Shown: piece after piece, positions 56,382 through 60,498 of the stretch
Numbering within the stretch: position 1 is the first letter of the stretch
Layout: each line of letters starts with the position of its first letter
Sequence record: PQ666540
Direction: 5' to 3' (one strand)
DNA length: 64,000 bases
DNA from: Shigella phage sb2
The notes under the pieces: model-generated
Told to the model about the DNA's origin: nothing
Databases searched by the model: none
Seen by the model: the letters and a program-made list of their open reading frames with translations, nothing else
Program-made: the position numbers and the translations under genes

Positions 56382-59300
56382 ATGGCTACTTTAAAACAAA
56401 TACAATTTAAAAGAAGCAAAACTGCAGGAGCACGTCCTGCCGCTTCAGTATTAGCCGAAGGTGAATTGGCTATAAACTTAAAAGACCGTGTACTTTTTAC
56501 TAAAGACGATCAAGGAAATATCATTGATCTGGGTTTTGCTAAGGGTGGTAGTATTGACGGAAATGTTATTCATAAAGGAAATTACAACCAAACTGGCGAT
56601 TACACTTTAAATGGCACCTTCACTCAGACAGGTAATTTTAATTTAACTGGTATTGCTCGAGTAACTCGTGATATTATTGCAGCTGGGCAGATTATGACTG
56701 AAGGTGGGGAACTTATTACAAAAAGTTCAGGTACAGCGCATGTTCGTTTTCATGATAGCATTAGCCGTGAGCGTGGAATCATTTATGCTCCGGCTAATGA
56801 TGGATTAACTACACAAGTACTTAATATCAGGGTTCAAGACTACGCCGCTGGTAGCGAAAGCACTTATGCATTTTCAGGTAGTGGCCTATTTACTTCACCT
56901 GAAGTATCAGCATGGAAATCTATGTCAACTCCTCAGATTTTGACCAACAAAGTCATTACTAATAATAAATCTACAGGTGATTATGACATTTATTCGATGG
57001 CAGATAATGTTCCACTGTCTGAAAGCACTACTGCTATTAATCATCTCCGTGTCATGCGTAATGCAGTCGGTTCTGGCATTTTCCATGAAGTTAAAGATAA
57101 TGATGGAATAACTTGGTACAGCGGAGATGGGCTAGACGCTTATCTTTGGTCATTTACATGGAGCGGCGGAATTAAATCGAGTCACTCAATTTCTATCGGT
57201 TTAACACCTGGCAATAAAGATTATTCAATACTAGGACCATCTAGTATTGCTTTAGGGGATAATGATACTGGATTTAAATGGCACCAGGATGGATATTATT
57301 TCAGCGTCAATAATGGAACGAAAACATTTTTATTTAGCCCTAGCGAAACAACTAGCCTAAGAAAATTTGTAGCTGGATATTCTACCAATGGAACCGATTT
57401 AACTACTCCTCCTACTGAAAACTATGCTCTCGCTACTGTTGTTACATATCATGATAATAACGCGTTTGGAGATGGTCAGACTCTTTTGGGATATTATCAA
57501 GGCGGTAGATATCATCATTATTTTCGTGGAAGAGGAACAACTAATATTAATACCGCTGGAGGATTATTAGTTACTCCTGGTAATATTGATGTTATTGGTG
57601 GTTCTGTTAATATCGATGGTAGAAATAATGCTTCTACATTGATGCTTAAAGGTAACACAACTGGTAGTAGTTCAGTTGATAATATGACAATTTCCGTGTG
57701 GGGTAATACGTTTACTAATCCTAGTGAAGGCACCCGTAAAAATGTCATGGAAATTTCTGATGCAACTAGTTGGATGAGCTATATTCAAAGACTTACTACC
57801 GGTGAAGTAGAAATGAACGTTAATGGTTCATTTGAATCATCTGGTGTTACTGCTGGAAATAGAGGAGTTCACACAACAGGTGAAATTTCATCTGGGGCCG
57901 TGAATGCGCTTCGCATTTGGAATGCAGATTATGGAGCCATTTTTAGACGTTCAGAAGGCAGTCTTCATATTATTCCAACTGCTTACGGTGAAGGTAAACA
58001 CGGCGATATCGGTCCACTTCGCCCGTTTAGTATGGCTTTAGATACTGGTAAAGTCACTATTCCTGATTTAGATTTAAATTATGCTTCGTTTGCCGCTAAC
58101 GGTTATATTAAATTTGTTGGTCATGGAGCGGGTGCCGGCGGTTATGACATTCAATATGCTCAAGCGGCTCCTATTTTCCAGGAAATCGATGATGATGCTA
58201 TAAGCAAATATTACCCTATTGTTAAACAGAAGTTTTTAAACAGTAAAGCTGTTTGGTCTTTAGGTACTGAAATTAATTCAGGTACATTTGTTTTACATCA
58301 TTTAAAAGAAGATGGTTCACAAGGCCATACATCAAGATTTAATGCTGACGGTACAGTTAATTTCCCTGATAATGTTCAGGTTGGTGGTGGTGAAGCTACT
58401 ATTGCTAGAAATGGTAATATTTTTTCTGATATTTGGAAATCGTTTACTTCAGCAGGAGACACCACAAACATTCGCGATGCGATAGCTACTCGTGTTGCCA
58501 AAGAAGGCGATACGATGACTGGTAGGTTGACTTTATCTGCTGGAAATGATGCCCTTGTTTTAACTGCAGGCACGGGCGCTTCATCGCACATCCGTAGCGA
58601 TGTAGGTGGTACAAATAATTGGTTTATTGGTAAAGGCGGTGCCGACAATGGTCTAAGTTTTTACAGTTACATTACACAAGGCGGTGTGAACATAACAAAT
58701 ACCGGTGAAATAGCGCTTTCTCCTCAAGGACAAGGAGCGTTTCATTTTAATAGAGACCGCCTTTATATAAATGCTAGTCAATGGACCGCACACCAGGCTG
58801 GCGATTGGGGCAATCAATGGCGCCAGGAAGCTCCTGTATTTGTTGATTTTGGTAATGTTGGTAATGATAGTTATTATCCGATTATCAAAGGAAAATCAGG
58901 TATTACTAATGAAGGGTATATATCTGGTGTAGATTTTGGTATGCGACGCATTCCTAATAACTGGGCACAAGGTATTATTCGTGTAGGTAATCAGGAAAAC
59001 GGCCATGACCCACAAGCTATCTTCGAATTCCACCATAATGGTACGTTTTATGCCCTGAGCATGGTTAAGAGTAACAGAATATCAGCTGGTGGAGGTGACC
59101 CTGTATGGACAGGCGCATGTGTTGTTATTGGTGATAATGATACCGGATTAGTTCATGGTGGTGACGGCCGAATCAATATGGTTGCCAATGGTATACATAT
59201 TGCAAACTGGGGCGCAGGCTATCAATCTCATCCGGGCCTTTGGGATTCAAATGGGGCTTTTTGGACAGAAGTTGGCAAAGCAATTATTTCTCATGGGCAT

Positions 59301-59690
59301 CTCGTTCAGGCGAATGACAGTTATTCCACATATGTCCGTGATGTTTATGTCCGCTCTGATATTCGTGTTAAAAAGGACCTTGTTAAATTTGAAAATGCTT
59401 CTCAGAAGCTTTCTAAAATTAACGGTTACACTTATATGCAGAAACGTGGAATGGATGAAGAAGGTAATCAGAAATGGGAACCTAACGCTGGTTTAATTGC
59501 TCAAGAAGTTCAAGCTATTTTACCAGAATTAGTTGAAGGCGACCTTGATGGTGAAGCTTTACTTCGTTTGAACTATAACGGCGTAATTGGTTTAAATACA
59601 GCTGCAATCAATGAGCATACTGTAGAAATTGCAGAACTTAAATCAGAAATCGAAGAACTTAAAGCATTAATTAAATCATTGTTAAAATAA
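56382..59690 (+). CDS. 37: long tail fibre distal subunit gp37 with C-terminal intramolecular chaperone-like domain
   Basis: 1102 aa; N-terminal region similar to gp34 segments; C-terminus ...SDIRVKKDL...[16 protein letters not shown]...IEELKALIK. Confidence 0.88.
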
Positions 59691-59695
59691 TAAGA

Positions 59696-59709
59696 GGGGC
59701 TTCGGCCCC
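59696..59709 (+). terminator. hairpin GGGGC-TTCG-GCCCC between genes 37 and 38
   Basis: GC stem with UUCG loop; no T-run, so may be an mRNA-stability or processing element. Confidence 0.4.
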
Positions 59710-59721
59710 TTGGAGGTTTAT

Positions 59722-60498
59722 ATGGCAGTTGAAGGACCGTGGGTAGGATGGTCTGCAGTAGTTAATACAGGACAAAATTGGATGGGTGGTGCGGCCCAAC
59801 GATTAAGAATGGGCATTCCGTTCTGGATGAGTAATATGATAGGTCGATCCGTTGAAGTAATTCACACACTTGGAGCAGACCATAACTTCAATGGTCAATG
59901 GTTCCGAGATAGATGTTTTGAGGCAGGTAGTGCACCCATAGTGTTTAATATCACAGGAAATTTGGTATCATATTCTAGAGATGTTCCTTTATTCTTCATG
60001 TATGGAGATACACCAAATGAATATGTTCAGTTGAACATACATGGTGTAACGATGTATGGCCGTGGCGGGAATGGTTGGGCCGCTGGTGCAATTGGAGCAT
60101 CTGATGGCGGTGTATGTATCCAGAATGATATAGGTGGACGTCTGCGAATTAATAATGGCGGAGCTATTGCTGGCGGTGGCGGCGGTGGTGGTTATTCACA
60201 AGCCAACAACTGGGCGGGAAAATATGTTTGTGGTGGCGGCGGCGGTCGTCCATTCGGCTTAGGCGGAAATAATGGTGCTCGATGGCCTGGTGGTAATGCT
60301 AGTTTGACGTCTCCGGGTGCTGGCGGTAATACTGGTACAGGGTATTATGCAGGTGGCGGTGGTGAAGTTGGTCAACCTGGTCAATATGCTAATCCAGGTT
60401 CTGGTTATTCAACACCTCCGACAAATCCTGGTGCTGCTGTAGCAGGATCAGCTCCAACATGGCAAAATGTTGGAATAATATATGGTCCAAGAGTATAA
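59722..60498 (+). CDS. 38: gp38 receptor-recognising adhesin (T2/T6-type, glycine-rich motifs)
   Basis: 258 aa from ATG 59722 with GGAGG SD; multiple Gly-rich motifs (GGGGGGG, CGGGGG) separating variable segments. Confidence 0.85.

Follow-up and report, generated by a model that had tools for sequence, protein, structure and literature searches.

The distal tail-fiber tip of Shigella phage sb2: a gp37 with a predicted self-cleaving chaperone domain, a PP01/AR1-type gp38 adhesin and a conserved UUCG hairpin between their genes

The 64,000-nucleotide stretch of Shigella phage sb2 analyzed here (sequence record PQ666540; hereafter the window) is a segment of a Tequatrovirus (T-even) genome, 97% identical to Shigella phage pSs-1 over positions 30000-54000. 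Its genes 37 and 38 (92% identity with pSs-1 over the g37-g38 stretch) encode, with a probability that we put at about 0.88, the distal tip of the long tail fiber in the gp38-adhesin ('T2-type') arrangement. The assignment is carried by the domain identities of gp37 and gp38, by catalytic residues located by alignment, by a predicted fold, by the identity of the gp38 loops with those of phage PP01, and by the conservation of a hairpin between the two genes. A first-pass annotation, made from the letters alone, had called the module T2/T6-type. The architecture bears this out, whereas the sequence subtype is not that of T2 or T6 but PP01/AR1/S16-like, gp38 being 95% identical to that of PP01, 48% to that of T2 and 64% to that of T6.

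The C-terminal domain of gp37

The open reading frame (ORF) list gives gp37 1102 residues (56382-59690), as first annotated, and the chaperone domain forms its extreme C-terminus, the last 111 of these residues. The profile search for peptidase S74 that the first-pass annotation had proposed gave a clear match to Pfam Peptidase_S74 (PF13884, 'chaperone of endosialidase') at residues 992 to 1051 (47.4 bits against a 22-bit cutoff, E 2.3e-12), spanning profile positions 1-57 of 58. The chaperone-like segment described there is present together with the motif SDIRVKK and begins at residue 992; its length is 111 residues, not about 120. PF13884 is found on all 24 database homologs with a precomputed Pfam domain, and the domain matches the C-termini of more than 15 PHROG tail-fiber families. 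Residues 911 to 1102 (192 residues) align with gp37 of Salmonella phage S16 as crystallized with gp38 (PDB ID: 6F45, chain A, E 2.4e-43; Dunne et al. 2018), and the last 121 residues used as a query also match the MYRF ICA domain (PDB ID: 7DC3).

An AlphaFold2 model of these 121 C-terminal residues, built from a 21-sequence alignment, had a predicted local distance difference test score (pLDDT) of 89.3 and placed a helix at model residues 84-120 (a monomer prediction), whereas a single-sequence model of gp37 910-1102 was unusable (pLDDT 37). The helix corresponds to about residues 1065-1101 of gp37 and probably forms a coiled coil. The fold matches solved chaperone domains: in a Foldseek search of the PDB, ranks 1-10 were all intramolecular chaperone domains, those of MyRF ICA (7DC3, TM score 0.73, E 3e-6), 3GUD and 3GW6. 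With the K1F endosialidase (3GW6), the GA-1 appendage (3GUD), T5 pb1 (4UW8) and MYRF ICA, gp37 shares the Pfam family, the Ser-x4-Lys dyad, an α/β domain (predicted here) that ends in a long helix, and the placement of this domain at the very C-terminus of a trimeric β-helical fiber. It differs from them in sequence (12-25% identity) and in that cleavage in the gp37 module would also create the docking face for gp38.

The predicted nucleophile Ser992 and its partner Lys997 (nt 59370-59372) lie in S992-D-I-R-V-K997, which aligns with SDRRIK of S16 and ADLRAK of MYRF, and the Ser/Lys(+5) spacing equals that of the catalytic pairs reported for T5 pb1 (S1264/K1269) and MYRF (S578/K583). The pattern SDxRxK is kept in the database homologs whose aligned sequence covers the segment, including collagen-repeat prophage fibers. 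It lies 99-117 residues from the end of gp37 in 23 of 24 gp38-adhesin loci (SDIRLK at 99 residues in T2, SDSRLK at 113 in T6). In the 24th, IMG/VR locus L009, the gp37 frame upstream of g38 is interrupted within the last ~111 residues. The last 113 residues of S16 gp37 are reported to be an intramolecular chaperone that is autocleaved at DLNVS^SDRRIKK, cleavage exposing the docking surface for gp38. That T2 gp37 is processed by proteolysis was described as early as 1986 (Drexler 1986); a cleaved-then-capped fiber is the textbook model for T2 and T6. By homology, the C-terminal 111 residues (nt 59355-59687) are predicted to be released from gp37 by autocleavage.

gp37 is mosaic, as is typical of tail-fiber genes: overall it is 92% identical to its counterpart in pSs-1, 90% to that of AR1 and 85% to that of PP01, with 50-residue bins down to 54-70%, whereas its chaperone domain is ~96% identical to those of PP01 and AR1. 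Residues 450-550 (57729-58031, + strand) match Gp34_trimer and also the solved C-terminal region of T4 gp34 (PDB ID: 4UXE/5NXF, E ~1e-13); judged by this similarity, the segment is a module common to the proximal and distal half-fibers. The database proteins nearest to the chaperone domain (P0001-P0003) are 170-residue entries named 'tail fiber domain-containing protein [Escherichia coli]' on contigs of 165-167 kb, which probably represent T-even phage genomes deposited under the name E. coli, with a gene called only for the C-terminal end of gp37.

The gp38 adhesin

Gene 38 starts at ATG 59722 and encodes 258 residues (MAVEGPW...), in agreement with the annotated start in pSs-1, AR1, PP01 and S16. 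The start in the ORF list, TTG 59710 (262 residues), was rejected, as this codon lies inside the intergenic hairpin and precedes the Shine-Dalgarno (SD) sequence. Two Pfam families together cover the protein, Gp38_N (PF21721) at residues 1-40 (74.5 bits, E 6e-21) and GP38 (PF05268) at residues 45-258 (238 bits, E 1.3e-70), each against a cutoff of 25 bits. Glycine makes up 23.6% of the residues overall and 32% of residues 111-258, with runs at 113-118 (GRGGNG), 151-157 (G7), 171-175 (G5), 179-182 (GLGG), 199-202 (GAGG) and 211-214 (GGGG). Residues 37-258 are ~97% identical to the PP01 gp38 receptor-binding domain in crystal structure 9V85, and the full protein aligns with S16 gp38 (6F45, chain D, E 1e-50). 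The description of gp38 as a glycine-rich tip adhesin is borne out by these profiles, runs and identities. G+C content rises to 0.50 at 60000-60499.

The glycine columns and three tryptophans, Trp7, Trp20 and Trp35, are invariant across the gp38 proteins of the window, T2, T6, S16, PP01 and G4507. In S16, three symmetric pockets in the trimer of gp37 reportedly receive the three conserved tryptophans, and one gp38 monomer caps three gp37 chains; the chain counts of PDB entry 6F45 (three chain A, one chain D) fit a (gp37)3-gp38 stoichiometry. The S16 tip shares with that of the window its architecture, a homologous cleavage motif, the tryptophans, the glycine-rich motifs and a UNCG hairpin between the genes. 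It differs in its gp38 (49% identical, with different loops), in Ser-Ser against Arg-Ser at the cleavage site, in a much shorter gp37 (749 residues) and in its genus, Gelderlandvirus.

Overall, gp38 is 93-95% identical to the proteins of PP01 and AR1, both phages of E. coli O157:H7, and 95-96% identical to those of PP01 and G4507 by alignment. S16, PP01 and AR1 are the phages that the window resembles in the gp38 N-terminus (MAVxGPWVG) and in the stretch of gp37 ahead of the cleavage site. In T2 and T6 a processed gp37 is likewise capped by a glycine-rich gp38, with a hairpin in the spacer (Drexler, Riede, Henning 1986; Trojet et al. 2011), but the N-terminus of their gp38 has a VGVPG insertion that the window protein lacks, and their gp37 tip before the cleavage site is shorter and not alignable with that of the window. 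PP01 gp38 is reported to work with T2 gp37 only after exchange of its N-terminal 113 residues. Two positions of the window gp38 stand apart from its relatives: residue 10 is Trp (59749-59751), adjoining the conserved docking residue Trp7, where the seven relatives included in the comparison carry Ser, Thr or Glu (Ser/Thr in PP01 and AR1), and the long poly-Gly run (60172-60192) has 7 residues against 8 in relatives, PP01 and AR1 included.

Receptor-binding loops

The first-pass annotation had proposed a comparison of the variable segments of gp38 with phages of known receptor. When the loops published for PP01 (A, W119-I124; B, Q161-V170; C, N184-W189; D, N204-Y209; E, N225-S231; Terasaki et al. 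mBio 2026) were located in the window protein, loops A to D proved identical to those of PP01, which binds OmpC. Loop E differs in one tip residue, NPGSGYS in place of NPGAGYS (Ala to Ser), and the same Ser is found in Shigella phage pSs-1. The OmpA-type adhesins of K3, Ox2 and M1 were left out of the comparison, the match of the loops to PP01 being nearly complete already.

The receptor of PP01 is OmpC of E. coli O157. Loop E enters the cleft between OmpC loops 5 and 7, and loops D and E crosslink to these two OmpC loops; specificity is reportedly governed by loop E, where Ala228 makes hydrophobic contacts. The near-identity of the loops makes OmpC the most likely receptor of the window adhesin, as predicted from sequence. 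Its affinity for O157-type OmpC is uncertain because Ser at the loop E tip lies outside the substitutions tested in PP01, and the preferred OmpC allele is likewise uncertain.

The hairpin between genes 37 and 38

The 31-nt spacer between g37 and g38 is identical in the window, pSs-1, G4507, AR1 and PP01. It contains a C(UUCG)G hairpin that starts 4 nt past the tandem stop codons and ends 1 nt before the SD. The first-pass annotation had noted a UUCG hairpin without a T-run between the genes, and this is what we find at 59695-59710: the GC-rich stem-loop is followed by TGGAGGTT and not by the T-run of an intrinsic terminator, and a terminator scan of the + strand gave no terminator-like site there.

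A hairpin occurs at the g37-g38 junction in 24 of 24 gp38-adhesin loci examined and in T4. The stems vary: GAGGGC/GCCCTC in T2, AAGGGGC/GCCCCTT with a 3-nt loop in T6, GAGCC/GGCTC with a UACG loop in S16 and GGGCC/GGCCC in other lineages. All 16 distinct junction sequences fold to a hairpin of 5-8 bp, with ΔG from -10.6 to -14.7 and z scores of -2.5 to -4.2 against shuffled sequences. Compensated stem changes occur across them at position 2 (GC in 10, CG in 6) and at positions 4-6 (GC/AU). Stems were tallied from the closing pair outwards after each sequence had been folded, the MAFFT alignment of the spacers being out of structural register. The 3' end of the stem lies usually 10-12 nt from the ATG in adhesin-type phages, and 15-16 nt in two. 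Folding of a 71-nt stretch around the hairpin was not significantly more stable than shuffles (z -1.45), the scores of -2.5 to -4.2 being those of the spacers by themselves, and an Rfam search of positions 55500-61500 at E<=1 gave no match, hence no Rfam family for the hairpin.

UUCG hairpins with at least 5 Watson-Crick pairs number 12 in the window against ~0.6 expected from shuffles, an enrichment that fits the original discovery of the UUCG tetraloop hairpin in T4 mRNA. In most of them a C-G pair closes the loop and the stem is GC-rich; examples lie at 693-706, 7354-7373 and 13996-14011 on the + strand and at 31689-31670, 30810-30791, 27077-27054 and 10316-10299 on the - strand. The stop-hairpin-SD layout recurs at at least two other copies, 13996-14011 (+) and 30810-30791 (-), with an SD-like GGAG/GAGG directly after the hairpin. 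A second UUCG hairpin in the fiber block follows g35 (55658-55679, GAGGGAGCC-TTCG-GGTTCCCTT) and, unlike the g37-g38 hairpin, is followed by a T-run, TTTCTTTATA; it directly precedes the motif TATAAATA (55686-55693) upstream of g36, and the equivalent site in G4507 is annotated as a terminator.

The g37-g38 hairpin is of a known class, the intercistronic C(UUCG)G hairpins of T-even phages. It probably stabilizes or insulates the message, and it may help to keep the output of gp38 below that of gp37. At the T4 37-38 junction a nearly identical hairpin core, GGGGCTTCGGCCC, lies directly past the g37 stop codon, but in T4 the hairpin comes after the SD, where it reportedly shortens the distance between the SD and AUG of gene 38 from 22 to 5 nt. 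The window has the opposite order: its SD (59712-59716) follows the hairpin and already stands at the normal 5 nt from the ATG, so that SD-AUG bridging is not the role of the hairpin here.

Gene order and neighboring genes

By the ORF list and the Pfam and PHROG scans, the block is the canonical late tail-fiber block g34, g35, g36, g37, g38 and t (Table 1), and the order g36-g37-hairpin-g38-t is that of PP01 and AR1. Gene 38 lies immediately 3' of the S74-bearing g37 and 5' of the holin gene t. Beyond t come asiA, arn and motA, encoded on the opposite strand; pSs-1, AR1, PP01, T2, T6, S16 and T4 have the same arrangement. Exact late-promoter motifs nearby are restricted to 50619, before g34, and 55686, before g36; the latter is the sole exact copy of TATAAATA from g34 to the end of the t gene, and g36-g37-g38(-t) therefore presumably share one late transcript. 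As g38 itself lacks an exact late promoter, its transcription must pass through the UUCG hairpin, which argues against efficient termination there.

Table 1. Coordinates of the tail-fiber block and of the features of the fiber tip in the window.
Feature	Positions	Strand	Remarks
g34	50661-54530	+	start 50661; extent of frame
g35	54539-55654	+	
T4-type late promoter motif TATAAATA	55686..55693	+	upstream of g36; putative, by its match to the consensus
g36	55717-56373	+	
g37 precursor	56382-59690	+	1102 aa
Gene 37, mature part	56382..59354	+	aa 1-991; distal half of long tail fiber; phrog_1699 full length
Predicted autocleavage site Arg991^Ser992	59352..59357	+	DVYVR^SDIRVKK; aligned to S16 DLNVS^SDRRIKK
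Peptidase_S74 intramolecular chaperone domain	59355..59687	+	C-terminal, aa 992-1102
Tandem stop codons TAA TAA	59688..59693	+	end of gene 37
C(UUCG)G hairpin AGGGGC-UUCG-GCCCCU	59695..59710	+	6 Watson-Crick pairs and G59694-U59711 wobble; ΔG -13 kcal/mol
Shine-Dalgarno GGAGG of gene 38	59712..59716	+	5 nt before ATG
g38	59722-60498	+	258 aa
gp38 N-terminal attachment domain Gp38_N	59722..59841	+	aa 1-40; Trp7, Trp20, Trp35
gp38 β-helix and polyglycine-II sandwich receptor-binding domain	59842..60498	+	
gp38 predicted loops	A 60076-60093; B 60199-60228; C 60268-60285; D 60328-60345; E 60391-60411	+	
t (holin gene)	60530..61186	+	conserved downstream neighbor; context only

Gene 34 carries two in-frame TAA codons 8 codons apart (53226-53228 and 53250-53252, ...SLEL*EKNIYSV*PYELKRV...), past which its frame continues unchanged to 54530. 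In pSs-1 the corresponding codons are TAC (Tyr) and TCG (Ser), and its gp34, of 1290 residues, is intact. The best of 560 phage records matching the stretch around the stops was 95.3% identical to it, with none above, and no match was found in E. coli genomes; the 90-nt bin at the stops has 10 differences from pSs-1 and is no outlier in divergence. The stops could be a sequencing error or mark a pseudogene or a nonsense mutant. In gp35, the fiber hinge protein, residues 58-123 match Pfam PF15711 ILEI (interleukin-like EMT inducer / FAM3 fold; 34.4 against 27 bits, E 3e-8).

Discussion

We propose that gp37 would be made as a 1102-residue precursor, the last 111 residues of which would act as a Peptidase_S74 intramolecular chaperone that nucleates trimerization of the β-helical fiber. 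Once the trimer has folded, the chaperone would cut itself off between Arg991 and Ser992, through Ser992 activated by Lys997, and cleavage would expose the blunt end of the gp37 trimer. One gp38 monomer would then dock by its N-terminal domain, its three conserved tryptophans entering three symmetric pockets, and the five loops protruding from its C-terminal polyglycine-II sandwich would engage the receptor on the host cell, for which the porin OmpC is the most probable candidate. Gene 38 itself would be transcribed through a conserved, non-terminating intercistronic UUCG hairpin of a kind common in T-even mRNAs.

Several observations weigh against parts of this scheme. The residue before the nucleophile is Arg here, as compared with Ser in S16 and Thr in T5. 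At Ala228 of PP01, Val and Leu were tolerated but Asp or deletion abolished infection, and Ser is outside the set tested; the closest relatives with the same loop E Ser (pSs-1 and the sb phages) were isolated on Shigella. Phage G4507 has the same hairpin annotated as 'putative transcriptional terminator, -10.10'. The absence of an exact TATAAATA between 55686 and g38 speaks for the scheme, but the search was confined to exact copies of the consensus. With the gene 34 stops as written, the genome might not assemble long tail fibers. For this sequence, moreover, cleavage, the 3:1 assembly, OmpC binding and the function of the hairpin are what we infer.

We considered whether the adhesin might recognize something other than O157-type OmpC, either a Shigella or K-12 OmpC allele or another porin, by way of the Ala-to-Ser change in loop E. 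The importance of that loop and of the hydrophobic contacts of Ala228 for PP01 specificity speaks for such a shift, as does the isolation on Shigella of relatives with the same residue. However, loops A to D and the remainder of loop E are identical to those of PP01, Ser is small and only mildly polar, and OmpC is reported as the receptor of Shigella T2-type phages too. We regard a target other than O157-type OmpC as rather unlikely, and on the same three grounds a different OmpC allele would be likelier than a different protein. The known receptors of the more distant relatives are FadL/OmpF for T2 and Tsx for T6. A composite view, in which the junction is a device that sets an expression ratio (by partial termination, 3'-end protection of a g36-g37 message or re-initiation control, with gp38 at ~1/3 of gp37 in keeping with the (gp37)3-gp38 stoichiometry) and in which, separately, the loop E Ser common to the Shigella-phage relatives retargets the adhesin to a different OmpC allele, appears to us unlikely.

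Doubtful to a greater degree is the idea that the hairpin is a Rho-independent terminator or attenuator that ends most g36-g37 transcripts, a minority reading into g38 and t. A GC-rich stem of 6-7 bp with an extra-stable UUCG loop directly past the stop codons looks the part, the G4507 annotation says as much, and partial termination would fit a 3:1 gp37:gp38 stoichiometry. The + strand stem, on the other hand, runs into TGGAGGTT with no T-run, at a site where the terminator scan was silent, and g38, which encodes the adhesin, has no exact late-promoter motif of its own. In addition, the layout of stop, hairpin, SD and start recurs in the window (13996-14011, and 30810-30791 on the minus strand), and in T4 the homologous hairpin reportedly forms part of the translation initiation region of gene 38 rather than a terminator. 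We consider it very improbable that the C-terminal domain of gp37 is retained in the mature tip and that gp38 is only an assembly chaperone as in T4. Beyond the T4 precedent nothing specific favors it, and against it stand the adhesin Pfam families of gp38 and its 97% identity to a crystallized receptor-binding domain, the description of T4 gp38 as an unrelated protein, the intact catalytic Ser and Lys of gp37, and the reported cleavage of the homologous domains of S16, T2 and T6.

The S74 chaperone on gp37, the polyglycine-II sandwich adhesin gp38, the UUCG hairpin and the gene order are all already in the literature; elements of the module were reportedly described by Drexler in 1986, Dunne in 2018 and Terasaki in 2026. 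The proteins of the window are 92-97% identical to characterized ones, so the module, although correctly read, is ordinary, and the value of the analysis lies in annotation and host-range prediction rather than in discovery. The small documented addition of the junction survey is that a UNCG-type hairpin is conserved at this junction in gp38-adhesin phages and in T4. The two genes can be labeled with confidence as a gp37 precursor (mature part 1-991 and S74 chaperone 992-1102) and a PP01/AR1-type gp38 adhesin, and these labels allow prediction of the likely receptor, OmpC, and of the single loop E residue likeliest to tune the host range of the phage.

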